IMG/VR virus record: IMGVR_UViG_2703718819_000006 | Strand: one strand, 5' to 3' | Length of the DNA: 64,000 nt | Source of the DNA: a virus | Taxonomy: Duplodnaviria > Heunggongvirae > Uroviricota > Caudoviricetes | Part shown: positions 4,296 to 46,065 of the stretch, piece after piece | Numbering within the stretch: the stretch's first letter is position 1 | Layout of the letters: each line of letters opens with the position of its first letter | Translations under genes and position numbers: made by a program | Notes under the pieces: model-generated | Told to the model about the DNA's origin: nothing | Databases searched by the model: none | What the model saw: only the letters and a program-made list of their open reading frames with translations

Positions 4296-4316
4296 AAGTA
4301 AATAATGCGACTGGCG

Positions 4317-5150
4317 TTACGCACGGCGAACAATCATACGGTTGTTGATGTAACTGACCAGCAAGCGCCAGGTACTACGAGCCACATGCACGTTTGCAGC
4401 TTTGCCGGTACGGTACATGTTGGTTGTTTCACCGATGGACTCTGACAAAATGCCATCCTCTCGTGCTGCGGCTACATCATTGCCATTTGCGATCTCACAC
4501 GCTTCGTTGACAACGGCGAGCATCAACGCTTCTTTGAAGTAGTCAGGGAACTCTTCAAACTTCTCCTGCGTCATCTTTTCCCAATCAACTAAATCATGCC
4601 GGTATGCTCCATCTGCTCCCCACGGAATGTCATACACATTCAGCATATTTTGAGGACGATCGTATCGGTCAAAGTCGATACGTAGAATTTTGCGGATTGA
4701 GAACGGTAAAGTTTTAATTCGTCTGGTAGCCTCAATGAGACGCTTGCGCATTAAACCTTCACCATCCGACAGCAAAGTGTCCCCATTCAGCATATCGATC
4801 GCCTGCATTTGAGCATCAGCGACAGTTGCAAACGACTGTTCTGGTATCGACAGTTCAAAACTATTTAGCAGAACATACATTTGTCGCTCTTCATGCGTCA
4901 GTCCTGATGCAACAGCCTTCACAATGACGTATCGCAGATCGCGTTCTTTCTCAGAGAGTCGATTATATTTAGCCGACACTACAACCGGAATCGACATTTG
5001 CCCGCTGGTAATTTCTAGCGACTCACCATCAACGAGAATAGCCCCGGTGCTGTCCTTTACTGTGTAGGTAGCAGATTCGATATCCAGCACGTTGAAGGCA
5101 AATGAAAGAGAAACGGCTTCACCGCTACGATACGAGTTGATCTGCGCCAT
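4317..5150 (-). CDS. hypothetical structural protein
   Basis: 277 aa ORF in morphogenesis operon; stop/start overlap with 5150..5584. Confidence 0.4.
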   Translation of the reverse strand: MAQINSYRSGEAVSLSFAFNVLDIESATYTVKDSTGAILVDGESLEITSGQMSIPVVVSAKYNRLSEKERDLRYVIVKAVASGLTHEERQMYVLLNSFELSIPEQSFATVADAQMQAIDMLNGDTLLSDGEGLMRKRLIEATRRIKTLPFSIRKILRIDFDRYDRPQNMLNVYDIPWGADGAYRHDLVDWEKMTQEKFEEFPDYFKEALMLAVVNEACEIANGNDVAAAREDGILSESIGETTNMYRTGKAANVHVARSTWRLLVSYINNRMIVRRA

Positions 5151-5629: not shown

Positions 5630-6550
5630 TTATTCCTGTGCGGCAGTAACTTCTACAGTAGCTGTCGCTTTGTGGCTACCATCTTGGGTAGTAACCTCGA
5701 TTGTGGCAGTGCCAGCCGCAACACCAGTTACAACACCGGTTTCGCTGTCCACCGTTGCAAACTCGGTATTTTTGGATTCCCAAGTAACGGTTTTATTTGT
5801 GGCTCCTGCCGGTTCTACATTTGCGGTCAACTGAACAGTGCTGTTTTCTTCAACTGTCGTGCTGCTTGGTTCAATCTCGACACCAGTAACAGACACAACA
5901 GGCGATGTGACTTCCACCGTTGCGGTTGCCTTTTTGCCGCCATCTTCTGTAGTAACCTCGATTATGGCAGTCCCAACCTCAACACCAGTAACGTTTCCAC
6001 TCTGGTCTACCGTTGCCTTGTCCTCATTTTTGGAAGTCCATGTAACTGCCTTATTAGTCGCATTAGACGGTTGAATATTTGCTGTCAGATTGACCGTATT
6101 ACCCTTCTCAACACTCGTTGAGTTCGGCGTTAAAGTTACGGATTGAACGGCAATTGGGTTCACCGTAACTTCCACTGATGCTGAAAGCTGGGTTTCCCGA
6201 TCTGTGGCAGTAATATTTACTTTCCCTGGATTCACACCTGTCACCAGCCCACTGTCGTTTACTGTTGCAATTCGATCATTGTCTGATTCCCAAGTAAACG
6301 AACTAACACTCTTGCTCATTGTGATACCTGCACTTAATTGAACCGTTTCCCCAACCATAATTGACGGCGATACCGGGGTGATATTTACGGTTTGGAAGAA
6401 AGGAATCGCCTGTAAACAAGCAGATAGCTGACTCTGCTGTCGATCGGTTAAAGGTTCGTTGGAGATAGAATTGGTAAATCCGGCACGGCACATATGCCCC
6501 GTAAAATCCGAAAATGCCTCTTCCGTAATCTTCATCTTTTGTTCTGGCAT
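5630..6550 (-). CDS. Ig-like (Big_2-type) triple-repeat protein, probable capsid decoration / surface protein
   Basis: 306 aa; three tandem ~85 aa repeats each with motif VxxGxTxQLxAxxxPxxATNKxVTWxSxNxxxATVDxxGxVTGVxxGTAxI; immediately downstream of major capsid gene. Confidence 0.6.
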   Translation of the reverse strand: MPEQKMKITEEAFSDFTGHMCRAGFTNSISNEPLTDRQQSQLSACLQAIPFFQTVNITPVSPSIMVGETVQLSAGITMSKSVSSFTWESDNDRIATVNDSGLVTGVNPGKVNITATDRETQLSASVEVTVNPIAVQSVTLTPNSTSVEKGNTVNLTANIQPSNATNKAVTWTSKNEDKATVDQSGNVTGVEVGTAIIEVTTEDGGKKATATVEVTSPVVSVTGVEIEPSSTTVEENSTVQLTANVEPAGATNKTVTWESKNTEFATVDSETGVVTGVAAGTATIEVTTQDGSHKATATVEVTAAQE

Positions 6551-6564
6551 TTCTCGCTCCTACA

Positions 6565-6596
6565 AAAAGGGTGGGCGTATAGCCCACCCTTTAACA
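6565..6596 (-). terminator. hairpin AAAGGGTGGGC..GCCCACCCTTT followed by T-run on minus strand
   Basis: Inverted repeat seen directly downstream of capsid gene stop (6624). Confidence 0.5.
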
Positions 6597-6597
6597 T

Positions 6598-6613
6598 AGA
6601 TAATTACCTATCT
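6598..6613. promoter_or_regulatory. family-2 palindrome AGATAATTACCTATCT
   Basis: Palindrome in gap upstream of 5630..6550 start. Confidence 0.4.
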
Positions 6614-6623
6614 ACTACACTGA

Positions 6624-7502
6624 TTAAATTTTTACATTGGTCAGTGCAGCGATAGCCTTATCGTGCTTATTCGCCAGAGAGCAGTACCACTTCACACGGG
6701 TACGTACTGCGTCTTTGTTCTGTACAGTACCAATGTTTTCAACAACGATACCTGCGTTGTCGCCGCCATACAGACCAGTAACGCCGTTCTCTTCAGAAAG
6801 GTGCAGACAGTAGATATCCGCTTTGGTGGAGTCCACAACCGGAATGAAGTCGTTTACGATAAACGGAACGCCGTTATGGCACAGCATTGGTCGACCGAAG
6901 TTTTCCATCATGATTTCGGACGGGCCTACGTTTACAGTTCGCAGCAGCGCACGATATGCGCGAAGATGCTCAGAACGCATCATGATGCAGTCTGCGCCCA
7001 GATCTTTAACTGCGTCGACCAGTTCGTCGAACATAGAGAAAGTCATGGATGCGCCGGAGATGTCGATCTTCTGATCGTCATGCATCAGCTTCGGAATACC
7101 GTCGAAGGCTTTGTTGTTAGTGGTGGAGTCGCCAACAATCAGATTGCGACGGAAGGCACGAGCAAGACCTTTGACTTTCTGACGAACCTGGATAGCCAGC
7201 TGGTTGTTGGTATCAGCCATAGTGGTAGCCAGGAATTTGTCGACGTCAACGTCGCCAGCCAGAATGCGCAGCTTCGCAACTTTCTCTTCGAAGGTTGCTG
7301 CACCTTCGGTGATGGTGTCGTTCACATCAATGAAAGTAGCTTCGCTCAGCGTTTTTTCACGGTTGTACAGATATGCCTTTGAATTAATTTTCATAAAAGG
7401 CAGGATGGCAAACAGGTCATCGCGATCGATGATAGTTTCGATCACACCCTGTTCAAGTTCGTTGTTAGACAGCTTTTCAGCTTCTTCACGCAGTAATGGC
7501 AT
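6624..7502 (-). CDS. major capsid protein
   Basis: 292 aa ORF directly after scaffold-like coiled-coil protein and portal; highest-expression-style context with strong terminator downstream. Assignment by gene order, not motif. Confidence 0.55.
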   Translation of the reverse strand: MPLLREEAEKLSNNELEQGVIETIIDRDDLFAILPFMKINSKAYLYNREKTLSEATFIDVNDTITEGAATFEEKVAKLRILAGDVDVDKFLATTMADTNNQLAIQVRQKVKGLARAFRRNLIVGDSTTNNKAFDGIPKLMHDDQKIDISGASMTFSMFDELVDAVKDLGADCIMMRSEHLRAYRALLRTVNVGPSEIMMENFGRPMLCHNGVPFIVNDFIPVVDSTKADIYCLHLSEENGVTGLYGGDNAGIVVENIGTVQNKDAVRTRVKWYCSLANKHDKAIAALTNVKI

Positions 7503-7527: not shown

Positions 7528-8415
7528 TTACTTAAGTCCAATTTTCCCCAGACCGGAGGCCAACTTATCCATAGTCGACTTGTTCTTCGGTTGGGATATT
7601 GTGTAGGTCGATTTGGAATGTGAGCCTACACCCTGCTTGGCTTCGCTACGCATCAATGCGTCAGCTTCCGGATCTGCCCGCACAATGCGTTCAATCGCGG
7701 ATTCAAACGGCAACGGCTTACCTTCACCGTCAACCAGAACAGCTCGTTCTTTATGACCTGCCGGTTTGTCATAACCCACTACGCTACCGTCTTCACCCAC
7801 TTCAAAATGAGAACCGTAGATCACGCGGGCTTTTGCCGGGGTCATCAGAACTTTGTCACGTAGGAAGAGAGAGTTACTGAAGGAAGCGCCCACGGTCATC
7901 TCGACTAATTGAGATTTCAGTGATGCGTTTTCACTTTCCAGTGCTGCATAACGTTCGTCACGCTGTGCCAGCTCTGCCTGGTGTGCTTCGATCATCTGTT
8001 TTTTAACAGCATCGAACTCACCACGACGCTCCAGTTCAGCTTGCTCCGCCTCACGACGTGCGTTTTCTGCGGCCTGTTCAGCTTCTAAAAGCTGGCGAGC
8101 ACGAGCCGGATCGATATCACCGTACTGAGCAAGCTGATCGGCCAATGTGCGCTCTTTCTCTTTGCGCTTCATGTTCTCCTTCAGCAGTTCAGCACCAGCT
8201 TTCTTGGTTTTACGAAGTTCGGCCAGTAACTCTTCCTGAGTCATGCCAGCGTATTCGTCATCGCCCTTCGGCTGCTCTTTTTGTTCACCCTGTTTGTCAG
8301 GATCTTGTGTACTCTGCTCATTATCAGCAGCTACACCGCCAGCGCCTCCACGCTCATGCGCTTCAGCGACATCCATCAGACCACGACGGGCCAAAAGCAT
8401 TTGCCACAGATTCAT
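7528..8415 (-). CDS. scaffolding protein
   Basis: 295 aa, highly charged, Glu/Ala/Arg-rich predicted coiled coil (EAEQAAENARREAEQAELERR...), between portal and capsid genes. Confidence 0.5.
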   Translation of the reverse strand: MNLWQMLLARRGLMDVAEAHERGGAGGVAADNEQSTQDPDKQGEQKEQPKGDDEYAGMTQEELLAELRKTKKAGAELLKENMKRKEKERTLADQLAQYGDIDPARARQLLEAEQAAENARREAEQAELERRGEFDAVKKQMIEAHQAELAQRDERYAALESENASLKSQLVEMTVGASFSNSLFLRDKVLMTPAKARVIYGSHFEVGEDGSVVGYDKPAGHKERAVLVDGEGKPLPFESAIERIVRADPEADALMRSEAKQGVGSHSKSTYTISQPKNKSTMDKLASGLGKIGLK

Positions 8416-12397: not shown

Positions 12398-13297
12398 TTA
12401 TGCCGGTAAAGCAATTTCTAACGGTTTATCCAAAGGTTGTTTGTCGAATGCCAGCAGTGGCAGCGTGTCAGGCAGTCGACGACCAAAGTCAGGGTTTCGA
12501 TACACACCATACAACGGAGACGTAAAGCTCAGGTTGTGAATGTCCTTGAGCAGCTTCACAATGCTGGCCTCGTCCACCAGACTGTCGGCAATGTCCTGAA
12601 TCGTCGTGCCACGATTCCGCCCAGCTTTTGCCAGGGAACTGTTCTTGTGGTAGTCCGCCACCAGATCACGCAGTGCACGGCGACGACGAGACTCGCTCAT
12701 AGCGAACAACTCTTTGACGATCGCCTCGTTATCACCCGGGTCGGAGCGGAAATGGCGCTGGAACACACGCAGTGCACTTTCATAGCTCTTCGGTCGCTCA
12801 GGGCGGATGAACTTAAACCCTGCTTTCATGGCGAAGGGATTGTATTTGCTCATCGATGACTGGATCTCAATGATTGGCCGGTCATGCATCCTGCTAACCA
12901 GGTTAATCATTCGATAAGAGACGCCTACGCCACGGTACTGAGTATCCACAACTGAGCGGCTGATCACCGCAAAGTTGTTATTCACGTACCGGCCCCAGTA
13001 CTGGTTAGCCACGGTGGTATTGGTGGTTGGTTTCAACTTAGGAAACATGCGATGGCGAGGTGCCAGCAGAAGTTTCGGGTAAGCCATAACCACGACGCCC
13101 ACCAGACGGTCATCCAGTTCGCAGCGATAGTATGTTGGCGCGAAAGGTTTGCCGTCTGTTTTGTAGTGAAGCGACTTAAGAGCGTGCCAGTCCTCTACAG
13201 TTCCCTTTGTGACAGTCATTCGCTCCAGAAAGTCCAGATGACGCGGAAACTCTTCAGGGCGGTAGCGTTTGATGATGATATCTGCCATGTCGATCAC
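12398..13297 (-). CDS. hypothetical protein (possible GNAT-like motif RGVGVSYRMI), last gene of ParB/ATPase operon
   Basis: 299 aa; start overlaps stop of 13294..13548. Confidence 0.35.
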   Translation of the reverse strand: MIDMADIIIKRYRPEEFPRHLDFLERMTVTKGTVEDWHALKSLHYKTDGKPFAPTYYRCELDDRLVGVVVMAYPKLLLAPRHRMFPKLKPTTNTTVANQYWGRYVNNNFAVISRSVVDTQYRGVGVSYRMINLVSRMHDRPIIEIQSSMSKYNPFAMKAGFKFIRPERPKSYESALRVFQRHFRSDPGDNEAIVKELFAMSESRRRRALRDLVADYHKNSSLAKAGRNRGTTIQDIADSLVDEASIVKLLKDIHNLSFTSPLYGVYRNPDFGRRLPDTLPLLAFDKQPLDKPLEIALPA

Positions 13298-15606: not shown

Positions 15607-17166
15607 ATGACTGTTCGGATTGTATCTAACGCAGTAAATGCGCTTATTTCTGGCGCAGATGACAAGGTAAAGCAACTGGTGCAGCAAATGTTGAGCTACG
15701 AAGTCGAGACTGGCGACTGGAAGGGCACAAGCACGATGTTCAACTGGAGTAAAAACTCGTTCCCTGCTGGCTTTGCCAAGCCTGTAGCGGCGAACTTGAA
15801 CAAGGCGGGCATCAAATGTGTTCATATCCGCAAAGACAAAGCCCCGGCGCTTGGTAAACCAAATCCGGCGGTTAACCCATTCCCATACAATCCTGATTAT
15901 GCGTATCAGGATCAGACTGTGGAAACACTGGTTCGAGAGGGAATGATGATTGCGCAGATCGCTACTGGTGGCGGGAAATCTAACGTTGCCTGCAAAGCAG
16001 CTGCACGTATCGGTCGAATGACATTATTTTTAACAACCCGCTCTGTTCTGATGTTTCAAATGGCCGAAAACTTCCAGAGATCCATCGACTACCGCGCCGA
16101 AAATGGCGAACCGTGGTTAAAGGGCCAAAAGGTTGGAGTCATTGGCTCGGGTGAGTTCCAGGTATCACGACATATCAACGTCGCTACAGTTCAAACTCTG
16201 GCAAGTTTCCTTGAAGAACCACCACGCGATGCAACACCAGATAAAAAGAGCTACCACCTCAAACGTCGGGAGTTGGTGAAACGCTTCCTTTCAAGTGTGT
16301 CTCTGCTTATTCTGGAAGAAGCGCATGAGTCTTCAGGCTCTAATTTCTATGACATTGCCAGATTATGTGTGAACGCAGACTATCGTCTGGCGCTTACAGC
16401 CACGCCGTTCATGAAGGATTCGACGGAAGCCAACATGCGCCTGATGGCGGTGGCCGGGCGAATTGAAATTAAAGTCACAGAAAAGTACCTGATTGATCGA
16501 GGCATTCTGGCAAAGCCGTACTTCCTTTATCATAAAGTTGCCTACAAGCCAGACGAGGCCAGAATCAAGGCCGAACTTGCCAACAAACACCTCAATTTTA
16601 GAGTTGGTATGAGCACCGCCTACCAAAAGGCTTATCAGTTGGGGATCGTGTATAATTTGGGACGTAACGAGGCCATAGTGCGCGAGGCATTGCTTTATAA
16701 GCAACATTCACTCAACTGCATGACTCTGGTTCGTCTTAAACGCCACGGGCAAATCCTGATGGAGATGATGAAGGAGTCAGGTCTTAAAGTTGATTTCATC
16801 TATGGGGAATCTAACCAGACGACAAGGCAAGCAAAGCTGAATAGTTTAGCGTCTGGTGAAATAGATGTTTTAATAGGCTCGACTATTCTGGATGTTGGTG
16901 TTGATGTGCCAAGCGTTGGTGCGGTCATTCTTGCTGGTGGTGGGAAAGCAGAAGTTGAAATGAGACAGCGTGTCGGTCGTGGCTTACGAGCCAAAAAAAA
17001 TCAGGCAAACGTGTGTTTTATCACTGATTTCATTGACATTAGCAACAAATACCTGTTGTCTCACTCTTATGAGCGAAAACACATCATCGACACCACACCT
17101 GGCTTTGCAGAAGGTGTATTGCCTATTGATGGAGCATTCGATTTTGGAGTTCTGAAACGAGATTAG
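15607..17166 (+). CDS. superfamily-2 (DEAD/DEAH-type) helicase
   Basis: 519 aa; motif I ATGGGKS, motif II LILEEAHE, motif III LTATP, motif VI VGRGLR; good SD (AGGAAAGAGG) upstream. Confidence 0.75.
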   Translation: MTVRIVSNAVNALISGADDKVKQLVQQMLSYEVETGDWKGTSTMFNWSKNSFPAGFAKPVAANLNKAGIKCVHIRKDKAPALGKPNPAVNPFPYNPDYAYQDQTVETLVREGMMIAQIATGGGKSNVACKAAARIGRMTLFLTTRSVLMFQMAENFQRSIDYRAENGEPWLKGQKVGVIGSGEFQVSRHINVATVQTLASFLEEPPRDATPDKKSYHLKRRELVKRFLSSVSLLILEEAHESSGSNFYDIARLCVNADYRLALTATPFMKDSTEANMRLMAVAGRIEIKVTEKYLIDRGILAKPYFLYHKVAYKPDEARIKAELANKHLNFRVGMSTAYQKAYQLGIVYNLGRNEAIVREALLYKQHSLNCMTLVRLKRHGQILMEMMKESGLKVDFIYGESNQTTRQAKLNSLASGEIDVLIGSTILDVGVDVPSVGAVILAGGGKAEVEMRQRVGRGLRAKKNQANVCFITDFIDISNKYLLSHSYERKHIIDTTPGFAEGVLPIDGAFDFGVLKRD

Positions 17167-17168
17167 TT

Positions 17169-17447
17169 ATGAGTGAAAAGAAAACAACTTACTGTCAGGT
17201 AGCATTGTCTGATAAGGCCAATGACAAACTTGGAAAGTTTCAAGTGAAACTAAAAGAAAAAAATATCAAAATGTCTAAGGCTGAAGTCATAAATACCATT
17301 CTGGAACAATTGACAATGGCCGACTTTGACAAGGTTATATCTTCTGTCGGGGCTTCCGCTAAGACTCGTGAGAAAATCATGCGTATCTATGAGAACTCTA
17401 ATATGACAAAGGAAGATCTCGAAACGCTATTAAGCAGATTAAAATAA
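17169..17447 (+). CDS. hypothetical protein
   Basis: 92 aa ORF, start 3 bp after helicase stop. Confidence 0.4.
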   Translation: MSEKKTTYCQVALSDKANDKLGKFQVKLKEKNIKMSKAEVINTILEQLTMADFDKVISSVGASAKTREKIMRIYENSNMTKEDLETLLSRLK

Positions 17448-17473
17448 TCACGCTATCAATTAGGGAGACAAAG

Positions 17474-17938
17474 ATGAAGTCTCCCATACTGTTCACTTTC
17501 TGTTCTAAAACTATCATGAAATACTCGCTTCTCCCTCTACTAACGTTACCAGTGTTGATGCTTACCGCGTGCCAATCACGCCCAATATCAATCCATGACG
17601 CCAAACCAGCACCGCAGGCCAAAGTGTTCAAGTATCAAAGCGCAGCGCCAGCTACGTTGGTGGTAATGAGAGACACAGGTTTTGTAGGAGCTGGATGTGA
17701 TGCTTCCATTTTCATCAACGGCGAAACTGTCGCAAAACTGGCTACAGGCGAAAAAGCGACTTTCCATTTAAATGCCGGAGAATTAATTGTGGGTGCATCT
17801 CTTGAAGGTGCAGGTTTATGTGCTCTAAACCCCGCTCGTCAAGAGCGGGAAACGACTCTGAAGAATGGAGACACAAAAGCGTTCAGGGTGTTCACCAGCA
17901 ATTCTGGTGACATCGACATTCTGCCAACAACTCTGTGA
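17474..17938 (+). CDS. putative lipoprotein
   Basis: 154 aa; hydrophobic N-terminus ending in lipobox-like LTAC; SD GGGAGA upstream. Confidence 0.45.
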   Translation: MKSPILFTFCSKTIMKYSLLPLLTLPVLMLTACQSRPISIHDAKPAPQAKVFKYQSAAPATLVVMRDTGFVGAGCDASIFINGETVAKLATGEKATFHLNAGELIVGASLEGAGLCALNPARQERETTLKNGDTKAFRVFTSNSGDIDILPTTL

Positions 17939-17942
17939 TGAC

Positions 17943-18467
17943 ATGACAACCAAAGATATTACCTACGGTATCCAAGCTGAACTCTGGCCGCGAGATTACA
18001 CTAACGTTGAAAAACTACTGATGTTCTGGCGCAGAGAACAAATTCCTGTAAGGGTCACTCTCGAAGATGGCCAGGCGTTTTGCATGTACGTTTATGGCCT
18101 CATGCCATCTCGTAACAAAGTTGACCTTTGCCCAGCCCCTTTTGACAAAGAAAATCGCATAAGGCTCCCACTTGAACGCATTAGTACAATTGAATCAGGT
18201 GTGGTTGACAGTATCGCTCACGATTTCAAAGGTCGACTAACAGTTCACCCTGATTATGTCGATAATCGGCCATCACGCCGCGATTTTTTTGCAATTTGCA
18301 ACCAAGCCTACAAAGCAAACAAATCTATAAGGGTGTACATGGCGGATGGCCGTGAAATTGAGGGGGTGTCAGCAGGCGCAGATGCTTGTCAGGTTACACT
18401 ACGTGTCGAGAACGGTAGAAAAATAGTTGTTTTGTTCGATTGGGTTGAACGAATTTTGCCTTTTTGA
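17943..18467 (+). CDS. hypothetical protein (start at MTTKD, downstream of ORF-track start)
   Basis: ORF-track start 17865 overlaps previous gene; ATG at 17943 follows its stop. Confidence 0.4.
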   Translation: MTTKDITYGIQAELWPRDYTNVEKLLMFWRREQIPVRVTLEDGQAFCMYVYGLMPSRNKVDLCPAPFDKENRIRLPLERISTIESGVVDSIAHDFKGRLTVHPDYVDNRPSRRDFFAICNQAYKANKSIRVYMADGREIEGVSAGADACQVTLRVENGRKIVVLFDWVERILPF

Positions 18468-21664: not shown

Positions 21665-22081
21665 TTACCACCAGGCGCAGAAGGTCAGTCTGTTATTGTC
21701 AAAGTCGTGGTTCTTAATCAGATCTTCCACAAGCTCTTTCAACTGCCCCACATCATGCCAGTAACCTTCATCGTACTCCTGACTGCCGAAGAAAAAACCT
21801 TCCCGGGTAGGCAAGTACTCTTCGCAATTACTTTCGTTTATGTGCATCAAATGAGCCTTCAGAAAACAAATGTCATTCATCGTTAATTCTAAAAGCTCAC
21901 AATTTTCGACTTCACCTACGTTGCGCTCCATCCACCCAACGAGCGCATTGAACTTACGGAAGTAAGCAACCCGCTTTCTGGATGCCTCGTTATTCAGATC
22001 GTTTTTAGGCTGCGTCTCGATATAGATATCAAGTCCCATGATGGTTTCCTTATTAAGTTGCTTCAGTGAAATCATTTTCAC
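21665..22081 (-). CDS. hypothetical protein
   Basis: 138 aa; family-1 motif upstream. Confidence 0.45.
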   Translation of the reverse strand: MKMISLKQLNKETIMGLDIYIETQPKNDLNNEASRKRVAYFRKFNALVGWMERNVGEVENCELLELTMNDICFLKAHLMHINESNCEEYLPTREGFFFGSQEYDEGYWHDVGQLKELVEDLIKNHDFDNNRLTFCAWW

Positions 22082-22095
22082 AAACCAGATAAGGC

Positions 22096-22110
22096 AGAAA
22101 ACAAATTGTT
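22096..22110. promoter_or_regulatory. family-1 motif AGAAAACAAATTGTT
   Basis: Immediately upstream of start at 22081. Confidence 0.5.
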
Positions 22111-26137: not shown

Positions 26138-26169
26138 TATGTGGCTTATTATCTCAATCAACAAAAGGT

Positions 26170-26186
26170 AGAAAACAAATTGTTTT
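26170..26186. promoter_or_regulatory. family-1 motif, opposite orientation (AGAAAACAAATTGTTTT)
   Basis: Forms inverted pair with 26122-26137; last phage-type element before host-type metG terminator. Confidence 0.5.
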
Positions 26187-26269: not shown

Positions 26270-28303
26270 TTACTTAACTTGGTGGCCTGGTTTAGCACCA
26301 GCATCCGGGCTTAACAGGAAGATATCTTTTCCGCCAGGGCCAGCAGCCATCACCATGCCTTCGGAGATACCGAAGCGCATTTTACGCGGTGCCAGGTTAG
26401 CCACCATAATGGTGTGACGACCAATCAGTGCCTGTGGATCTGGATAAGCGGAACGAATGCCTGAGAAGACATTACGTTTTTCTCCGCCGAGATCCAGTGT
26501 CAGGCGCAGCAGTTTGTCAGAACCTTCGACAAACTCCGCGTTTTCAATCAGTGCCACGCGCAGGTCAACTTTGGCGAAGTCGTCAAAGGTGATGGTTTCC
26601 TGAATCGGATCGTCTGCCAGCGGGCCAGTTACCGGTGCGGCAGCGGCTTTGACTTCTTCTTTAGACGCTTCCACCAGTGCTTCAACCTGCTTCATATCGA
26701 TACGGTTATACAGAGCTTTGAACGGATTCACTTTATGTCCCAACAGCGGTTGCTGGATACCATCCCAGGTCAGTTCCGTATTGAGGAATGCCTCTGCACG
26801 TTCAGTCAGTTTTGGCAGTACCGGTTTCAGGTACGTCATCAGCACGCGGAACAGGTTAATGCCCATAGAGCAAATCGCCTGCAGATCGGCATCGCGACCT
26901 TCCTGCTTCGCCACCACCCACGGAGCCTGTTCATCGACATAGCGGTTAGCCAGGTCAGCCAGTGCCATGATTTCACGGATAGCTTTACCAAATTCGCGGC
27001 TTTCCCATGCTTCGCCAATCACTTCAGCGGCATCAGTAAAGGTTTTGTACAGTTGCGGGTCAGCCAGTTCGCTTGCCAGCACGCCGTCAAAACGCTTGTT
27101 GATAAAGCCTGCATTACGGGAGGCCAGGTTAACCACTTTGTTCACGATATCGGCATTCACGCGCTGAACGAAATCCTCCAGGTTGAGATCGATATCATCA
27201 ATGCGCGAAGAGAGTTTCGCAGTGTAGTAGTAACGCAGGCTGTCGGCGTCAAAATGATTCAGCCAGGTGCTGGCTTTAATAAAGGTGCCGCGAGACTTGG
27301 ACATCTTCGCACCGTTCACCGTCACATAGCCATGAACAAACAGGTTGGTCGGCTTGCGGAAGTTGCTGCCTTCTAGCATGGCAGGCCAGAACAGGCTGTG
27401 GAAGTAAACGATATCTTTGCCGATGAAGTGGTACAGCTCGGCGGTAGAGTCTTTCTTCCAGTATTCGTCGAAGCTGGTGGTGTCGCCGCGTTTGTCGCAC
27501 AGATTCTTGAAGGAACCCATGTAGCCAATCGGCGCGTCCAGCCAGACGTAGAAATATTTGCCCGGCGCGTTCGGAATTTCAAAACCGAAGTAAGGCGCAT
27601 CGCGGGAGATATCCCACTGTTGCAGGCCGGATTCAAACCATTCCTGCATTTTGTTTGCCACCTGCTCCTGCAACGCGCCGCTGCGGGTCCATGCCTGCAA
27701 CATTTCGCTGAAAGAAGGCAGATCAAAGAAGAAGTGTTCAGAATCACGCATTACCGGCGTAGCGCCAGAAACCACCGATTTCGGTTCAATCAGTTCAGTC
27801 GGGCTGTATGTCGCGCCGCAGACTTCACAGTTATCGCCGTATTGATCTGGCGCTTTACATTTCGGGCAGGTGCCTTTTACAAAACGGTCCGGCAGGAACA
27901 TGCCTTTTTCCGGGTCGTACAGCTGAGAGATGGTGCGGTTTTTAATAAAACCGTTCTCTTTCAGGCGAGTATAGATAAGCTCAGACAACTGACGGTTCTC
28001 TTCGCTGTGCGTCGAGTGATAGTTGTCATAGCTGATGTTAAAGCCTGCGAAATCAGTCTGATGTTCCTGACTCATTTCGCCAATCATCTGTTCCGGTGTG
28101 ATACCAAGCTGCTGTGCTTTCAGCATGATTGGCGTACCGTGGGCATCGTCGGCACAGATGAAATTAACCTCGTGGCCGCGCATTCGCTGGTAACGAACCC
28201 AGACATCAGCCTGGATGTGCTCCAGCATATGGCCGAGGTGGATTGAGCCGTTAGCGTACGGCAGCGCGCACGTCACCAGAATTTTCTTCGCGACTTGGGT
28301 CAT
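26270..28303 (-). CDS. metG: methionine--tRNA ligase
   Basis: Translation from ATG at 28303 ([48 protein letters not shown]...) has class-I HIGH motif and KMSKS (GAKMSKSRG) and matches my recollection of enterobacterial MetG essentially residue for residue; the 43-aa extension in the ORF track is spurious. Confidence 0.95.
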
Positions 28304-28460: not shown

Positions 28461-29561
28461 ATGAGCGAGTCCAAATCGCCGGATGCCCTGAGAGCAATGG
28501 TAGCCGGTACGCTGGCTAATTTTCAGCACCCAACCCTGAAACACAACCTGACTACGCTTAAAGCGTTACACCATGTTGCGTTGATGGATGACACACTGCA
28601 TGTCGAACTAATCATGCCTTTCGTGTGGAATAAGCCTTTTGAAGACCTGAAAGAGCAATGTAGTGGTGATCTGCTCCGTATCACTGGCGCAAAGGCTATT
28701 GACTGGAAGCTGTCGTACAACATTGCCACGCTTAAGCGCGTCAAAAACCAACCAGGCATTAATGGCGTTAAGAACATTATCGCCGTCAGCTCAGGCAAGG
28801 GCGGCGTGGGTAAATCCTCCACGGCGGTAAACCTGGCACTGGCGTTGGCTGCTGAAGGTGCGAAAGTTGGTATTTTGGATGCCGATATCTATGGTCCATC
28901 AATTCCAACCATGCTGGGCGCGGAAAACCAACGTCCAACCTCACCTGATGGTACTCACATGGCACCTATCATGTCTCATGGCCTGGCAACCAACTCTATT
29001 GGTTATCTGGTCACCGACGACAATGCAATGGTGTGGCGTGGACCGATGGCAAGCAAGGCGCTGATGCAGATGTTGCAGGAAACTCTATGGCCTGATCTGG
29101 ACTATCTTGTTCTCGATATGCCGCCGGGCACTGGTGATATTCAGTTGACGCTGGCGCAGAACATTCCTGTAACTGGTGCTGTTGTGGTAACTACGCCGCA
29201 AGACATCGCGCTGATCGATGCGAAGAAAGGCATTGTGATGTTCGAAAAAGTCGAAGTGCCGGTACTGGGTATCGTCGAAAACATGAGTGTGCATATTTGC
29301 AGTAACTGCGGTCATCACGAGCCAATTTTTGGCACCGGTGGCGCAGAGAAACTGGCCGAGAAATACAACACGCAGTTGTTAGGCCAAATGCCACTTCATA
29401 TCTCACTTCGTGAAGATCTGGATAACGGAACACCAACCGTTATTAGTCGTCCAGATAGTGAATTTACGGCTATTTATCGTGACCTCGCAGATCGCGTTGC
29501 TGCCCAAATGTATTGGCAAGGTGAAGTAATACCTGGCGAAATCGCATTCCGCGCAGTGTGA
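28461..29561 (+). CDS. apbC: Fe-S cluster carrier ATPase ApbC/Mrp
   Basis: 366 aa; deviant Walker A SGKGGVGKS, CxxC (CSNCGH); divergent from metG as in enterobacterial chromosomes. Confidence 0.9.
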   Translation: MSESKSPDALRAMVAGTLANFQHPTLKHNLTTLKALHHVALMDDTLHVELIMPFVWNKPFEDLKEQCSGDLLRITGAKAIDWKLSYNIATLKRVKNQPGINGVKNIIAVSSGKGGVGKSSTAVNLALALAAEGAKVGILDADIYGPSIPTMLGAENQRPTSPDGTHMAPIMSHGLATNSIGYLVTDDNAMVWRGPMASKALMQMLQETLWPDLDYLVLDMPPGTGDIQLTLAQNIPVTGAVVVTTPQDIALIDAKKGIVMFEKVEVPVLGIVENMSVHICSNCGHHEPIFGTGGAEKLAEKYNTQLLGQMPLHISLREDLDNGTPTVISRPDSEFTAIYRDLADRVAAQMYWQGEVIPGEIAFRAV

Positions 29562-29988: not shown

Positions 29989-30107
29989 AGCGTTTTGCCC
30001 TCAATACTGTTCATTTATACAGTATACATGAAAGAAGCTCACTAAGTGCAACTGATCGGTACATAGCACCAGACAAATGAACGTTATTTTCTCGAACAAG
30101 AAAAGGT

Positions 30108-30144
30108 AGAAAACAAATTGTTTAAGGCCACAACTAGTGGCCTT
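30108..30144. promoter_or_regulatory. family-1 motif AGAAAACAAATTGTTT fused to hairpin AAGGCCACAACTAGTGGCCTT
   Basis: Upstream of 29988 start; same composite element at 34379-34416. Confidence 0.5.
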
Positions 30145-30160
30145 AATGGAGAAGGGATGC

Positions 30161-32765: not shown

Positions 32766-33147
32766 TACTGTTTATGATGCTGTCAGTACAGGGAGTAGAA
32801 AGCTGGGCATCTCCAGCTATTTTCATGACTTCGACATCCGCATATCGAATACCGAGGTGTATCAGACCTGCTATACCTGACTTAAGTCGAACATTTTCCA
32901 TAAACAGATCCTTTTCCCGCTGTTTAACGGTCTCCAGCTCAACACGCAACTTCTCAATTTCGGCAGCCATGTAGTAACCAACCATAGCGAAAGTGGCGAA
33001 AGGGTAGTCAGAATCATCAGGAGATACGGAGGCCATTAGCAGACCATCGTGCATGTTCTGGCTTCCATCAGTGATGGATACCGCATAAGAATCGCTGGTT
33101 TCCCGTTTATACAATACGACGACCGGGTTCTTGATTTTCTCTCTCAT
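32704..33147 (-). CDS. hypothetical protein
   Basis: 147 aa. Confidence 0.35.
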   Translation of the reverse strand: MREKIKNPVVVLYKRETSDSYAVSITDGSQNMHDGLLMASVSPDDSDYPFATFAMVGYYMAAEIEKLRVELETVKQREKDLFMENVRLKSGIAGLIHLGIRYADVEVMKIAGDAQLSTPCTDSIINSIASGVFTKEGQHDENSRSSR

Positions 33148-33701
33148 TACGATGCCTCTAACTTGTCTAACTCTTTCAGCCCTTCACGTACCGCGTTCAC
33201 AATGCGTTCCAGATACTGGTATTTCGGGTTTGGTACCGTTGGCCAGTCGGCATACCACGGATCATCACCAAAGAGATTCAGCAGTTTGTTACCGACGCCG
33301 AAACAACAGCAGCTTTCTTTTACGTCATCGGCGTTTTCCGCCTCGTCCCACATTTCACGAGCCAGTACGGCGTCGATTTCTCTCTCTCTTCGTAACTTTA
33401 TGATTTCTGACTTCACGAAAAGCAGATTTGCATCGTTGTCATCGTCGACCGTGCTTAGCAGTTGAGGGTCGAAATTGTCGATTAGATAATCGTTGCTAAC
33501 TCGCTTAATGAACGTCTGCACATCATCACCGCCCATAGCAAACCAAGCCGCAGTCCACGCTTTTCCGTAGCAGGTGATGGTGATTCTTCCCTTACCAGGT
33601 TCGTAGTTTTCAATCATCACTCGAACCGGATCGAGACGCTCCAGCTCTGTCAACACAAAGGAAAGAACATCTATTTTTTCTACCTTCATGCAGCCTCCCA
33701 C
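33147..33701 (-). CDS. hypothetical protein
   Basis: 184 aa. Confidence 0.4.
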   Translation of the reverse strand: MGGCMKVEKIDVLSFVLTELERLDPVRVMIENYEPGKGRITITCYGKAWTAAWFAMGGDDVQTFIKRVSNDYLIDNFDPQLLSTVDDDNDANLLFVKSEIIKLRREREIDAVLAREMWDEAENADDVKESCCCFGVGNKLLNLFGDDPWYADWPTVPNPKYQYLERIVNAVREGLKELDKLEAS

Positions 33702-34327
33702 GCGCTCCAGATCAGCGATTTGTGTTTTTCATAACGTTTGATGTGTACCGGTTTCAGAAGCGCAATACCTTCAGTGACTTTCGCCTTTGCGCTTAATAAC
33801 AACGGGTGTTCTATACCTATCCTCTCCATGTACTCGACAACATCAGCGTTGGCACCAATCTCCTTCCCGTTAAAAAGTACGTCCAGCATCAGCTCTTTCT
33901 CTGCAAGGTAGATAGCTGAAAACTCAGGATCGCGACTCACGATAGAAGAGGTATTGTCGAGCAGGTCAGCCAGCTTGATCATGCGCGTCTGCATGTCGAG
34001 ATTTTGCTCCAGCTCCCGGACATTGATGATGAAACGCTGTATTCGATTGCCGTCTTCTGGCCTTGCAATGTTGGTCAGAGCCTGAACCATTTCAGCTACG
34101 TGATCACCGAAGTGATCACGAACCATCTCTATGGTTACATGGGTGTCTTCGACCACATCATGCAGAAGCGCCGCGATTTGCATCTCCACGGTTCCGTCAT
34201 GCAATGCAACAATCTCTCGGACAGCAACCGGGTGGTTGATGTAGTTTTCGCCGGTATATTTTCTTTTCTGACCAACGCCACCATGAGCGCCAGCGGCGAA
34301 CATATGTGCTTCGGAAATACTAGACAT
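33686..34327 (-). CDS. HD-domain phosphohydrolase, RelA/SpoT-type small alarmone hydrolase-like
   Basis: 213 aa; HPVAV...ALLHDVVEDT motif characteristic of (p)ppGpp hydrolase HD domains. Confidence 0.6.
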   Translation of the reverse strand: MSSISEAHMFAAGAHGGVGQKRKYTGENYINHPVAVREIVALHDGTVEMQIAALLHDVVEDTHVTIEMVRDHFGDHVAEMVQALTNIARPEDGNRIQRFIINVRELEQNLDMQTRMIKLADLLDNTSSIVSRDPEFSAIYLAEKELMLDVLFNGKEIGANADVVEYMERIGIEHPLLLSAKAKVTEGIALLKPVHIKRYEKHKSLIWSAWEAA

Positions 34328-34378
34328 TCTTAACTCCGTTGTTTTCTAGTTGTGGTTATTTTCACAAATAAGAAAAGG

Positions 34379-34416
34379 CAGAAAACAATTTATTTAAGGC
34401 CACAACTTATGGCCTT
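34379..34416. promoter_or_regulatory. family-1 motif AGAAAACAATTTATTT fused to hairpin AAGGCCACAACTTATGGCCTT
   Basis: Upstream of 34327 start. Confidence 0.45.
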
Positions 34417-34446
34417 TATTTATTCACGCAGAAGGATTTGTAGCGT

Positions 34447-34827
34447 CTAATTGCCGGATAAAATGGGGTGAGGTGCTTGCCAGTAGGCTCCACCGTTCCA
34501 TGTGAATCCCATGCGAATAAGAGTGTTTATTGCGGCTTTGGTAGACTCAGATTCGACACTGGCTTTTCGAAACTCTTGAACCTCTTTCGCCAACTTGTAT
34601 GTAATTGTGCTGGGGACGATTGCAGCCCAGCCTTTCTCATGACTGTTAATGACCATCTGGATGTGACCATCCAGAATAGGTTGATTAGGCATGTTATTGA
34701 AAATGTCTGCCTGTTTTTGAATGTGAAGAAAAAGCCTTGCCAGCTCCATTTGCTCACTACGAGACAAGGGATTATCAAGAGGGCTTTTTGCAAAAGCGGC
34801 TATACGCTGTGCGTCAATGCCAAACAT
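34447..34827 (-). CDS. hypothetical protein
   Basis: 126 aa. Confidence 0.4.
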   Translation of the reverse strand: MFGIDAQRIAAFAKSPLDNPLSRSEQMELARLFLHIQKQADIFNNMPNQPILDGHIQMVINSHEKGWAAIVPSTITYKLAKEVQEFRKASVESESTKAAINTLIRMGFTWNGGAYWQAPHPILSGN

Positions 34828-35531
34828 CAGCGCACCTCACCATCTTTATGGCTGGAGCTAACTTCCGCCATTAAATGTCTGACGTAATCGACAAGAGAGC
34901 CACCTGGTGGAATCTGGCATTCCTCAACTAACTGGAAGTAGATATCCGCTGCATTACGTGTATTGCTACCCGCACATATTCTTTCTTCCCGAAGTGCATG
35001 AAGCTCGTTGATCAAACGGTCACACTCTCCGTTACGCTGATCCACAACGGCCTCAAGCTCTGCGACGCGTTCACCTGGCGTCTTACCTTCTTTGCGTTGG
35101 ATGGTAACGACGAAATCGCCAATTGCAGGGGCGTTGTAATCCAGCTCAAGGTAGTTTTTGGCACCGCTGCGGACGAACTCACCCGCGAACATGGTGGCGA
35201 ACATCGCAGAGGCCACTTCGCCGTTGAAAAGTGACTCCAGATCTAACGGAGTCCCGGCATCAAGAGCCTCTTTTGCTGTATCCATTGCATCCATGAACCG
35301 ATCAAACTCATTGGCGCGCTTTTCCAGGTTTTTCCATTGCTCGCTCCAACGTTTGGCAACGAAGTCTATGAATGTTTTCGCGGATTCATCAAAATTCCCC
35401 TCAAACTTAACGATGCCTTTATCAATAATGATCTGGCCTACCGCATCCTCTGCATAACCTTTCAATGTAAACTTGAAAGGAAAATCAGAATGGCCTGTGA
35501 CGTTAAAATGCTCTAACTGGAGGTTGTTCAT
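34827..35531 (-). CDS. hypothetical protein
   Basis: 234 aa. Confidence 0.4.
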   Translation of the reverse strand: MNNLQLEHFNVTGHSDFPFKFTLKGYAEDAVGQIIIDKGIVKFEGNFDESAKTFIDFVAKRWSEQWKNLEKRANEFDRFMDAMDTAKEALDAGTPLDLESLFNGEVASAMFATMFAGEFVRSGAKNYLELDYNAPAIGDFVVTIQRKEGKTPGERVAELEAVVDQRNGECDRLINELHALREERICAGSNTRNAADIYFQLVEECQIPPGGSLVDYVRHLMAEVSSSHKDGEVR

Positions 35532-44944: not shown

Positions 44945-45589
44945 CTAATGAACGGTCACTCGGCCACAGAACCGGTTTTCTATCTTTTCTACAGCGTTAT
45001 CTAGCATTCTCATCACTGATCTGGCTCTTGCTTCAACTGTGCGATACCGGTTGGAAACGACGAAGGTTTGCAGATCTCCCCTTTGCGGATGCAGGTGAAT
45101 TTTTGTCAGTTCCCCGCACATCAACGCATCAATACGAGCGACATACAGACGGTCTAATGATGCTCGTTGTGACCGCAAGTAATCTCGCTCTGAGAGAGCG
45201 ACCACCGGGCGTAGGCCAGCAATGGCGTTAAAGTTTGAAATAGCAGTTTTGTGGCAAAACTTTTCGATATCGAGGGCTAACTCAATACATCGATCTTCAT
45301 TGGTATGGCCGACCAAATCCAACGTGTAGGCCATAACATCAGCAGGTGTGCGATCGATAACAAAGCCTTCAGCACCACGCGTAAGTAGCTCTATATGCTT
45401 TGCTATTTCCATTTGAATCTGAAGCCGCTCATATAGAGGCATAGAATCACCTACTCGAACACCGAGGCGGCTCATCAAACTTCCGACACCAGCATCCACG
45501 TAAGGGATTCCGTAATGTTTGTCGATATATTTAGCCAGGGTTGTTTTCCCACTGCCCTGAGCACCAGTGATCCCAATCCGGTAATCCAT
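44945..45589 (-). CDS. P-loop nucleotide kinase (dNMP-kinase-like)
   Basis: 214 aa; N-terminal P-loop GITGAQGSGKTTLA; context next to DHFR/TS. Confidence 0.5.
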   Translation of the reverse strand: MDYRIGITGAQGSGKTTLAKYIDKHYGIPYVDAGVGSLMSRLGVRVGDSMPLYERLQIQMEIAKHIELLTRGAEGFVIDRTPADVMAYTLDLVGHTNEDRCIELALDIEKFCHKTAISNFNAIAGLRPVVALSERDYLRSQRASLDRLYVARIDALMCGELTKIHLHPQRGDLQTFVVSNRYRTVEARARSVMRMLDNAVEKIENRFCGRVTVH

Positions 45590-46065
45590 TACGACCTTCT
45601 GTATACGATCTGCGAAAAGCCAGGCTCTTCCTCGCTGGCTCGTTGGGTATAAGCTGTTTCAACAGGCACAAAGCCTAAATTACGCATCATGCTTGCCGGG
45701 AAGAATGCATCGGCGTTTGGCACATCAACGCCGATGTGGGAGAGCCAAATCTCTTCAACATGCGGCATGAATAGCGAGTAAATTTGTTCCCCGCCAATCA
45801 CCCACACAGGCTCTGGTAATCGCAACACATCATCCACACCAGCAGGGTAGAATCCATTTGGTACAAAGCCATGAGAGCGCGTCAAAACGAGGTTATGACG
45901 CTCTGGAAGAGGGCGTTTGAGACTTTCCATCGTTTTACGCCCCATAACGACAGTGGCGTTTTTGGTGAGTCTCTTAAATAGCTTCAGATCGGTAGAACAA
46001 CGCCAGGGCAGTTCGTTCGCTATGCCGATCTCATAGTTACGGCCAACAGCAGCTATCATCTTCAT
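45589..46065 (-). CDS. dihydrofolate reductase
   Basis: 158 aa; MIAAVGRNYEIG..LPW...VMGRKT...GRPLPERHNLVLTR pattern of DHFR. Confidence 0.8.
   Translation of the reverse strand: MKMIAAVGRNYEIGIANELPWRCSTDLKLFKRLTKNATVVMGRKTMESLKRPLPERHNLVLTRSHGFVPNGFYPAGVDDVLRLPEPVWVIGGEQIYSLFMPHVEEIWLSHIGVDVPNADAFFPASMMRNLGFVPVETAYTQRASEEEPGFSQIVYRRS

Follow-up and report, generated by a model that had tools for sequence, protein, structure and literature searches.

The stretch of DNA analysed here (the window, 64,000 nucleotides) is an SSU5-like phage-plasmid of E. coli, and the gene under study lies on its minus strand at positions 33686..34327. The open reading frame was confirmed to run from ATG to TGA over 213 codons, and direct reading of the sequence places a GGAG Shine-Dalgarno motif (34334..34337, minus strand) 6 nt 5' of the ATG. 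The original prediction had described the 213-aa product as an HD-domain enzyme resembling small alarmone hydrolases (SAHs), citing an HPVAV...LLHDVVED signature of the RelA/SpoT (RSH) hydrolase type. Both motifs are present, HPVAV as residues 32-36 and LLHDVVED as residues 54-61, within an HD_4 catalytic core that extends over approximately residues 1-152 and is followed by a clade-specific helical C-terminal part (153-213). A second gene, encoding a 180-aa protein of PF26211/'phiTE_072 family', follows on the same strand at 33147..33689; its ATG overlaps the stop codon of the SAH gene (ATGA), to which it is translationally coupled, and the two together form a cassette of ~1.2 kb. The SAH gene shares an accessory region with the genes of two DNA methyltransferases. 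It belongs to a long array of co-oriented genes that also holds nrdAB, thyA, dfrA, exonucleases and RNase HI, and from this gene order an early-region location is plausible. A Tad2-like gene was seen near the SAH gene in one relative.

Directly 5' of the SAH gene we found a repeated intergenic element (34355..34419, minus strand), recognised by a hairpin, by its repeat copies and by a break in homology. It consists of a GC hairpin (34396-34416), a conserved T-rich tract, TTGTTTTCTGCCTTTTCT (34371-34388), and an extended -10-like sequence, TGTGAAAAT (34358-34366). Further copies of the element occur at 30083-30147 (86% identical) and, in partial form, at 22074-22110; its core motif was encountered 5 times, against 0.06 occurrences expected. 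Homology with phages Cyrano and CMS-2020a stops at 34353, and both the SAH and its partner are missing from Cyrano. Taken together, these features suggest that the element is a combined terminator and promoter module, which would also mark the left boundary of the cassette. A scan for the sigma-70 consensus gave no promoter on the minus strand 5' of the SAH gene; the putative promoter is proposed from the conserved TGnGAnAAT. As the Rfam scan of the whole window yielded no match at gathering thresholds, the element is not a known RNA family; a tRNA scan of the whole window likewise found none.

The family assignment of the protein was examined by profile, sequence and structure searches. Pfam HD_4 (PF13328) matched residues 8-135 with 67.8 bits (E=1.1e-18), well above its curated threshold of 27.2 bits and far beyond chance; the NCBIfam model TIGR00691 (spoT_relA) matched over its positions 1-123, the N-terminal hydrolase part, with E=5e-24, and phrog_990 ('metal-dependent phosphohydrolase') with E=1.5e-54. 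In a PDB sequence search, 22 of the 24 matches listed (to E=4e-4) were RSH hydrolase domains or uncharacterised relatives such as Lmo0812, while the two weakest (E>0.1) were unrelated proteins. The AF2 model (pLDDT 96.8, pTM 0.92) is a single compact helical domain, and its best 50 Foldseek matches in the PDB are all RSH hydrolases (MESH1, bacterial SAHs, Rel/SpoT), with a best TM-score of 0.67 when normalised to the query and 0.79 when normalised to the target. Upon alignment with MESH1, R22, H32, H56/D57, E60/D61, D121 and N125 fall on the catalytic residues of that enzyme; H32, H56/D57 and D121 are the counterparts of the known MESH1 metal ligands (H35, H61/D62 and D122 in published numbering). 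In an alignment of 87 family sequences R22, H32, H56, E60, D61, D121 and N125 are invariant, and D57 is conserved at 99%. The RSH-specific HDxxED dyad (E60-D61) and the nucleotide-pocket residues R22 and N125 are thus all in place, and the only Pfam domains in the protein are HD_4 and HD, with no synthetase, TGS or ACT domain. By its sequence and predicted fold, the gene product is a stand-alone RelA/SpoT-type hydrolase.

One alternative is an unrelated protein of the wider HD superfamily, such as a dNTPase, a nucleotidase or a cyclic-nucleotide phosphodiesterase, with no alarmone activity, and the generic Pfam HD model does match the SAH (E=1e-6). The specific HD_4 model scores far above it, however, R22/N125 and the ED motif are invariant, and neither the PDB sequence matches listed nor the best 50 structural matches include a dNTPase or any other HD class. 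Since the profile matches, the sequence matches and the fold agree in assigning the protein to the RSH hydrolases, this alternative is refuted and its probability is negligible. The earlier proposal of a stand-alone SpoT/Mesh1-type hydrolase is thereby borne out; the enzyme type was recognisable from the motifs alone, and the functional guess made from them was essentially right.

The closest characterised relative is found in Salmonella phage SSU5. The SAH is 87% identical to SSU5_099 (AFL47026.1) over 213/213 aa without gaps, and the surroundings agree: both elements share an SSU5-type phage-plasmid backbone, a PF26211 gene follows with the same overlap (SSU5_100, 87% identical to the partner described here), and related Ea22-like and Eaa-like genes and a DUF4942 methylase lie upstream. 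The SSU5 locus differs in having one extra small gene directly upstream of the SAH gene, and SSU5 comes from Salmonella whereas the host here is E. coli. The two proteins are separated by 27 substitutions. Each of these falls at a variable position and 16 lie in the last 61 residues; no catalytic or invariant residue differs. Where the gene is present, its substitution pattern indicates purifying selection (dN/dS 0.18 overall, 0.11 in the core). On identity and gene order, the SAH is a syntenic orthologue of SSU5_099, which we identify with the 'PaSpo SSU5' SAH assayed by Jimmy et al. on the ground that SSU5 carries only one RSH-type gene. The SSU5 protein was classed as PaSpo by these authors (Jimmy et al. 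2020, PMC7229694), and from the 87% identity and shared synteny we infer the same subfamily for the SAH described here.

The published activity of the SSU5 enzyme bears directly on function. It neutralised all five toxic small alarmone synthetases (toxSAS) tested in vivo, namely CapRel, PhRel, PhRel2, FaRel2 and FaRel (PMC7229694, Table 1), and it is in routine use as a detoxifying partner when FaRel2, PhRel2 and CapRel-SJ46 are purified, and makes overexpression of CapRel-SJ46 tolerable; the protein family and this orthologue group are thus already described and already serve as a laboratory tool. Removal of pyrophosphate from tRNA, with restored aminoacylation, was demonstrated in vitro for MESH1 and ATfaRel, and a later paper attributed tRNA de-pyrophosphorylation to PaSpo-SSU5. 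The suggestion in the original prediction that such an enzyme could degrade alarmones to block alarmone-based defences gains support from the neutralisation of five toxSAS in vivo by an 87%-identical orthologue (PMC7229694).

Among solved structures, the metazoan MESH1 enzymes (human HDDC3, 3nr1/5vxa/9chy; Drosophila, 3nqw) are the best structural matches, with TM-scores of 0.67 and 0.79. They too are single-domain proteins, in which the metal ligands and the ED motif correspond one-to-one to those of the SAH (E=5e-12), and MESH1 has been shown to neutralise toxSAS and to restore aminoacylation of pyrophosphorylated tRNA. Identity is only 26-28%, however. The phage protein exceeds MESH1 by ~35 residues and has two helices that are absent in most family members, one inserted (161-170) and a long one at the C-terminus (193-212). 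MESH1 is moreover eukaryotic and acts also as an NADPH phosphatase. One may therefore ask whether the SAH is a MESH1-like metabolic phosphatase acting on NADPH, PAPS or another 3'-phosphorylated nucleotide: human and Drosophila MESH1, including PAPS and NADPH complexes, occupy Foldseek ranks one to five, and the sequence E-value quoted above points the same way. This resemblance cannot separate the substrates, as MESH1 also hydrolyses ppGpp and repairs tRNA, and the demonstrated phenotype of the SSU5 orthologue is toxSAS neutralisation; we consider a purely metabolic role very improbable.

The chromosomal SAHs (P. aeruginosa 6yvc/6z3n, C. glutamicum RelH 7qod, Bacteroides 7smg) have the same single-domain fold and hydrolyse (p)ppGpp and/or (p)ppApp. 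They are more distant in sequence (~20-23% identity in full-length structural alignments; sequence E-values of 1e-4 to 2e-6), and serve chromosomal housekeeping or self-protection, whereas the SAH described here is cargo of a mobile element. A further alternative is that the SAH, expressed from the resident plasmid-prophage, provides the lysogen with immunity against incoming toxins that synthesise (p)ppApp, for example Tas1-like effectors of the T6SS or the MuF-Apk polymorphic toxins of phages. In keeping with this scenario, FaRel, which makes (pp)pApp, is among the toxins neutralised by the SSU5 orthologue, the structural relatives of the SAH include the P. aeruginosa enzyme and the Bacteroides (p)ppApp hydrolase, and the upstream hairpin with its putative promoter-like sequence would permit moron-like expression. 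No (p)ppApp-synthesising toxin was identified on this element, though, and in sequence the SAH resembles 7smg, a dedicated (p)ppApp hydrolase, only weakly (E=2e-6), less than it resembles SpoT and MESH1. Immunity of this kind appears improbable as the principal function.

The HD domains of SpoT/Rel (7qpr/7qps, 1vj7, 6s2t) gave the best PDB sequence matches (E=7e-13 for A. baumannii SpoT) and carry the same catalytic motifs. Unlike these enzymes, the phage SAH lacks synthetase, TGS and ACT domains, and its chain does not continue past the helical region behind the HD core; because these domains are absent, no ribosome- or domain-mediated regulation is expected.

A further comparison concerns the type IV antitoxin ATfaRel of Cellulomonas marina and the SAH of phage PVP-SE1. 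They cross-neutralise all tested toxSAS via the toxin product (PMC7229694); both belong to the PbcSpo subfamily, as opposed to PaSpo (Jimmy et al., PMC7229694). ATfaRel and its toxin FaRel share an operon, whereas no RelA_SpoT synthetase was found here, either in the window, in the whole reference plasmid or in non-collinear segments. The precedent of ATfaRel (PMC7229694) and the TA-like ATGA overlap between the SAH stop and the start of the next gene could be taken to mean that the SAH is the type IV antitoxin of a toxSAS module encoded in cis, with the overlapping downstream gene as the candidate toxin. The properties of that gene argue otherwise. Its product matched no Pfam, NCBIfam or PADLOC model, and its AF2 model (pLDDT 89.5) has no synthetase-like fold and no significant fold match in the PDB (best E=0.31). 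Its distribution is independent of the SAH: the PF26211 gene is widespread without it, and was seen in numerous chromosomal prophages as well as 51 phage records, the majority from groups that gave no match in the SAH search. Conversely, SSU5-like contigs also hold SAH homologues that are more distant, in three further contexts that lack the partner. These contexts are also without a synthetase; in one of them a 156-aa overlapping gene follows the SAH. PADLOC models run on the SAH and six neighbours gave no matches, and NCBIfam and Pfam models identified nothing in the neighbours except DUF551 in one. As neither the window nor the reference plasmid encodes a synthetase, the SAH is not a cis antitoxin, and a type IV module is largely refuted and highly improbable.

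The distribution of the gene was then considered. Of 5,426 complete E. coli genomes, 36 carried an intact SAH. Most close relatives in E. coli do not have the gene, and elsewhere it is often fused, truncated or reduced to a remnant. The SAH is an accessory gene, and given its absence from most close relatives and its repeated decay any benefit that it may confer is conditional. In the same 5,426 genomes, capRel-SJ46 was located on P1-like plasmids in 14, and no strain carried both this gene and the SAH, in line with the mere 0.09 expected. CapRel systems are also located in prophages of Salmonella, E. coli, Enterobacter and Klebsiella.

This pattern bears on the proposal, common in phage genome papers, that phage SAHs serve host physiology. 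According to it, the SAH would mainly hydrolyse host (p)ppGpp, lowering the stringent response and keeping the cell permissive for replication, or biasing lysis/lysogeny or copy number. The closest solved sequence relatives include the ppGpp hydrolases SpoT, Rel and MESH1, and the co-directional array of nucleotide-metabolism and replication genes around the SAH requires an actively growing host. A core physiological role, however, predicts the SAH in all relatives, and the patchy presence with decayed forms described above is more typical of arms-race cargo; in addition, our literature search found no enzymology of the SSU5 SAH itself, including no measurement of ppGpp hydrolysis. Although compatible with a counter-defence role, manipulation of the host as the main function appears unlikely.

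The explanation that we favour, and consider probable, is that the SAH is a broad-spectrum counter-defence hydrolase that reverses the products of toxic small alarmone synthetases. Its predicted chemistry is a divalent-metal-dependent removal of 3'-pyrophosphate (Mn2+ in assayed relatives), in which the metal would be bound by H32, H56, D57 and D121 and the E60-D61 dyad would be catalytic. The enzyme would act on (pp)pApp/(p)ppGpp and on the tRNA 3'-CCA ends that CapRel, FaRel2 and similar toxins modify; by taking the 3'-pyrophosphate off these substrates it would undo the translation arrest imposed by such abortive-infection toxins. The relevant substrate is thus probably tRNA-3'-pyrophosphate as well as the nucleotides; for tRNA repair by the SAH itself we infer the chemistry from the biochemistry of MESH1 and ATfaRel. 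Because it would act on the product of the toxin rather than on the toxin, the SAH should have no toxin specificity. The SAH gene probably heads a short transcription unit, and any benefit during infection is a prediction; our literature search found no report of a phage SAH that improves infection of a toxSAS-bearing host.

A more specific version of the counter-defence explanation is possible, and we put it forward tentatively: the SAH may be a conditional weapon used between mobile elements, a tRNA 3'-end repair pyrophosphatase with which SSU5-like phage-plasmids would gain a foothold in CapRel-guarded cells. Its cassette would be swapped in and out at the conserved terminator-promoter boundary, and it would belong to a toolkit, for both protecting and attacking the translation apparatus, that also includes the element's tRNA genes, MetRS and a TacAT-like module. 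If this is true, rival P1-like phage-plasmids would be the carriers of the opposing CapRel toxSAS in E. coli, and the fused, truncated and remnant SAH copies would be the record of an ongoing arms race.

To what was already established for this orthologue group, the present analysis adds the structure of the cassette, the patchy distribution with its decayed copies, and the absence of a cis-encoded synthetase. The SSU5-like family is common in Enterobacteriaceae (E. coli, Salmonella, Klebsiella, Enterobacter and Citrobacter) and often carries resistance genes. That one SAH may cancel several unrelated toxSAS bears on how these phage-plasmids could cope with tRNA-targeting abortive infection.

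The small alarmone hydrolase (SAH) gene of the window was read from the sequence as an ORF of 213 codons on the minus strand (33686..34327), running from ATG to TGA, with a GGAG ribosome-binding site (34334-34337, minus strand) 6 nt before the ATG. Both motifs on which the original prediction was built were found in its product (HPVAV, residues 32-36; LLHDVVED, residues 54-61). Profile matches were well beyond chance: Pfam HD_4 (PF13328, the RelA/SpoT-type HD domain) scored 67.8 bits (E=1.1e-18; gathering score 27.2), NCBIfam TIGR00691 (spoT_relA) matched over model positions 1-123, the N-terminal part of the model (E=5e-24), and phrog_990, "metal-dependent phosphohydrolase", gave E=1.5e-54. 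ORF, motifs and profiles together confirm a RelA/SpoT-type HD hydrolase at this position. Among the 24 PDB sequence matches listed, 22, extending to E=4e-4, were hydrolase domains of RelA/SpoT homologs (RSH) or close uncharacterized relatives, and the two weakest (E>0.1) were unrelated to RSH. The matches included A. baumannii SpoT (E=7e-13), Lmo0812, M. tuberculosis Rel, human and fly MESH1, RelSeq, T. thermophilus Rel, and small alarmone hydrolases of P. aeruginosa, C. glutamicum, Leptospira and Bacteroides. In the HMMER alignment, R22, H32, H56-D57, E60-D61, D121 and N125 paired with the arginine, metal ligands, catalytic Glu-Asp and asparagine of MESH1; all were invariant among 87 homologs, with the exception of D57 (99%).

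The AlphaFold2 model built from the same 87-homolog alignment was all-helical and of very high confidence (mean pLDDT 96.8, pTM 0.92). When compared to the PDB by Foldseek, RSH hydrolases occupied all of the top 50 places, with MESH1 first (TM 0.67 query-normalized, 0.79 target-normalized); neither a dNTPase nor any other HD class appeared among these 50, so that an unrelated HD phosphohydrolase, the outcome that would have spoken against the prediction, was not obtained. A Pfam search detected no synthetase or regulatory domain in the protein besides the RSH hydrolase domain; it is thus a small alarmone hydrolase, and the enzyme stands alone, as predicted. By every feature testable in silico, the window protein falls within the RSH hydrolase family and, there, among the SAHs. 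Compared with most family members, which are 165-190 aa long, the SAHs of the SSU5-like clade carry an extra helix (about 161-170), and their C-terminal helix (193-212) is longer.

The region around the gene matches SSU5-like phage-plasmids. E. coli plasmids of about 103-115 kb carry the SAH locus at up to 99.3% identity, and the whole window was collinear with one E. coli phage-plasmid, NZ_CP126951.1, at 91-99%. A translated search of 50,697 phage records returned one close relative, that of Salmonella phage SSU5 (two database records). The SSU5 gene, SSU5_099 (AFL47026.1), is annotated as [quoted passage not shown], and its product is 87.3% identical to the window SAH over all 213 residues. 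The two loci agree in part in their gene order: both have the overlapping downstream gene, and the upstream Ea22-like gene, Eaa-like gene and DUF4942 methylase of SSU5 are related to their window counterparts, whereas SSU5 has one additional small gene directly upstream of its SAH. The 27 differences between the two proteins all fall at variable alignment positions and none at invariant residues. The dN/dS ratio between these two alleles indicates purifying selection on the gene: it was 0.18 overall, 0.11 in the catalytic core and 0.26 over the last 61 residues.

The annotation of SSU5 and a family-HMM scan of its first 100 kb, translated in six frames, both revealed a single RSH-type gene. 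By this single-copy argument, SSU5_099 has to encode the protein that Jimmy et al. 2020 call "Salmonella phage SSU5 SAH (PaSpo)", and by orthology the window SAH would belong to the PaSpo group of these authors. In co-expression, the SSU5 SAH neutralized all five validated toxic small alarmone synthetases (toxSAS), namely CapRel, PhRel2, FaRel2, PhRel and FaRel (PMC7229694, Table 1). It has since been in routine use: it keeps cells alive during PhRel2 overproduction (bioRxiv 10.1101/2021.04.30.441581), likewise protects cells overproducing CapRel-SJ46 (PMC9712102), and for FaRel2 overproduction its leaky expression suffices (PMC11559606). The finding is thus not new, since a syntenic ortholog with 87% identity has been tested by experiment and has become a standard laboratory tool.

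The product of FaRel is (pp)pApp. Two SAHs, MESH1 and ATfaRel, restored the aminoacylation of pyrophosphorylated tRNA in vitro, in assays supplied with Mn2+ (bioRxiv 10.1101/2021.04.30.441581). By analogy, the most likely mechanism of the window SAH is 3'-pyrophosphate hydrolysis, which would be divalent-metal-dependent and would act on (pp)pApp/(p)ppGpp and on modified tRNA. Such an enzyme would reverse the effect of a toxin while leaving the toxin itself untouched, which would account for the breadth of toxSAS neutralization. The original reading, a SpoT/Mesh1-like hydrolase that could act against alarmone-based defenses, stands, with a toxSAS-neutralizing ortholog in its favor; it may be refined in that the relevant substrate probably includes pyrophosphorylated tRNA. 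The substrate range of the window allele and its use during infection are what we infer from these comparisons. The SAH could also damp the host's own stringent response, a role compatible with counter-defense. Immunity to imported (p)ppApp toxins and a MESH1-like metabolic role are both possible, and nothing in the present data pointed specifically to either.

The gene arrangement brings in a further candidate role, that of the antitoxin of a cis-encoded toxSAS. The ATG of the downstream partner gene (33147..33689, minus strand; 180 aa; PF26211, "phiTE_072 family", function unknown) overlaps the SAH stop codon (ATGA), which gives the pair the look of a toxin-antitoxin module. However, no RelA_SpoT synthetase is annotated on NZ_CP126951.1, either in the stretch equivalent to the window or in the remainder, and no RelA_SpoT domain was detected in ORFs of the window segments that do not align to this plasmid. 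The SAH is therefore not the antitoxin of a cis-encoded toxSAS; unlike in toxSAS-SAH modules, the defining synthetase partner is absent. The partner itself also argues against this role: the Pfam, NCBIfam and PADLOC profile searches run here returned no match, and its confident AlphaFold model (pLDDT 89.5), in which long helices come after an N-terminal region of four beta strands, matched no PDB structure significantly by Foldseek (best E=0.31). It was found in 51 phage records and many chromosomal prophages, and the phage groups bearing it mostly had no match in the SAH search.

The partner, a protein common among prophages, has an invariant C40 and a CC pair (C127-C128). Profile phrog_3451 (287 positions) matched the N-terminal ~90 residues of the Ead/Ea22-like protein (34827-35531, minus strand; profile positions 13-101) and the entire partner (33147-33701, minus strand; positions 101-282). 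Since they match separate parts of one profile, the two would form a single protein in other phages; in the window each has its own gene, and the Eaa-like gene and the SAH come between the two.

More distant SAH homologs on SSU5-like contigs occur in other contexts. In Klebsiella the SAH gene comes immediately before the DUF4942 methylase; in a 41%-identical clade the next gene is an overlapping one of 156 aa (uncompared with the partner), with a Tad2-like gene nearby; and another E. coli allele lies directly downstream of the plasmid's metG. As the partner often occurs without a SAH as well, their coupling is lineage-specific. The Tad2-like gene (PF11195, Thoeris anti-defense) of the 41%-identical clade lies about 2 kb upstream of the SAH (contig L008, 1563-1877), in a region with a faint TerB match and a DUF4942 methylase, consistent with an anti-defense island. 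The second E. coli allele, P0009 (231 aa, 62% identical; 4001-4696 in E. coli contigs L010 and L011, 2135-2830 in L012), occupies a different site, about 150 nt downstream of a plasmid-borne methionyl-tRNA synthetase gene. In P0009 the HD metal-binding dyad is replaced by HG (LLHGVIED), so that it may be catalytically impaired or repurposed.

Three features were seen in the 119-nt gap upstream of the SAH: a GC hairpin (34396-34416), a conserved T-rich tract, TTGTTTTCTGCCTTTTCT (34371-34388, minus strand), and an extended -10-like motif, TGTGAAAAT (34358-34366). With 0.06 occurrences expected, the window contains five copies of the tract: on the minus strand at 22087-22104, 26161-26178, 30099-30116 and 34371-34388, and on the plus strand at 63518-63535. 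The four minus-strand copies are spaced by about 4 kb, each in an intergenic gap of a long minus-strand gene array. An extended -10-like TGnGAnAAT (CGA in one copy) comes after every one of them, a GC hairpin comes before three of the four, and in three of the four modules a start codon lies some 30-45 nt farther on. Related copies are present in SSU5 (7935-7969 and 12444-12507 of the SSU5 stretch L001). A simple sigma-70 scan called no promoter upstream of the SAH, and no Rfam family matched the element. Judged by this layout, the elements may be terminator-plus-promoter modules that break up the accessory region every 4 kb or so; the SAH would then be the first gene of its unit.

In phages Cyrano and CMS-2020a the flanking genes are 96-99% identical to those of the window, but the SAH and its partner are missing. 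Nucleotide homology ends at 34353 and picks up weakly near 33100, which delimits a cassette of roughly 1.2 kb holding both genes. The module may double as a boundary for cassette exchange, as only 5 nt separate the -10-like motif from the Cyrano breakpoint downstream of it.

Other cargo of the phage-plasmid includes, in the window, metG, encoding a full-length MetRS (26270-28303, minus strand), and apbC (28461-29561, plus strand). Outside the window, NZ_CP126951.1 holds further translation- and tRNA-related cargo (6488-7141 and 17120-17918). The phage-plasmid carries four tRNA genes (Ser, Thr, Tyr and Asn) and a TacAT-like pair, in which a TacA-family antitoxin gene adjoins one for a GNAT family N-acetyltransferase. 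Toxins of the TacT type acetylate aminoacyl-tRNA. The SAH, MetRS, tRNA genes and TacAT-like pair suggest a tRNA-centered conflict toolkit. An ORF at 17865-18467 (plus strand) matched Pfam Flag1_repress (repressor of phase-1 flagellin, FljA-like; E=2.5e-84); it sits where the window and the reference E. coli plasmid differ, SSU5 has a similarly annotated gene, and a phage-plasmid gene of this type could change host flagellin expression. The nucleotide-metabolism module holds a phage-type dihydrofolate reductase (about 45589-46065, minus strand; 81099-81575 in the reference plasmid) that PGAP names "trimethoprim-resistant dihydrofolate reductase DfrA51", an antibiotic-resistance label put on phage metabolic cargo.

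The full-length SAH gene was present in 36 of 5,426 complete E. coli genomes, plasmid-borne every time; its upstream flanking gene occupied 171 plasmid sites. At the protein level, homologs were found on 343 plasmids (306 classed as non-mobilizable), mainly of Klebsiella, Escherichia, Enterobacter, Salmonella and Citrobacter. As to the toxins, CapRel systems have been described from Salmonella, E. coli, Enterobacter and Klebsiella prophages, and capRel-SJ46 was found on P1-like plasmids in 14 of the 5,426 genomes; no strain held both it and the SAH, against 0.09 expected by chance, an expectation too low to discriminate. Decayed copies are common in related plasmids (proteins P0010, P0011 and P0012-P0014; E. 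coli plasmids H191-H195). In one form an AAA-ATPase N-terminus is joined in frame at "EDTHV" to SAH residue ~58 onward, with loss of H32, H56 and D57; such a fusion implies that roughly 12 kb of accessory DNA were deleted. In another the upstream Ea22-like gene is fused to residue ~75 onward, and a 139-residue truncation was seen on 139 contigs. Some plasmids retain just the first 39-44 nt, two of these remnants adjoining an IS5 element or transposase. Constraint where the gene is present, yet frequent absence or breakage, is typical of conditionally useful cargo such as anti-defense genes.
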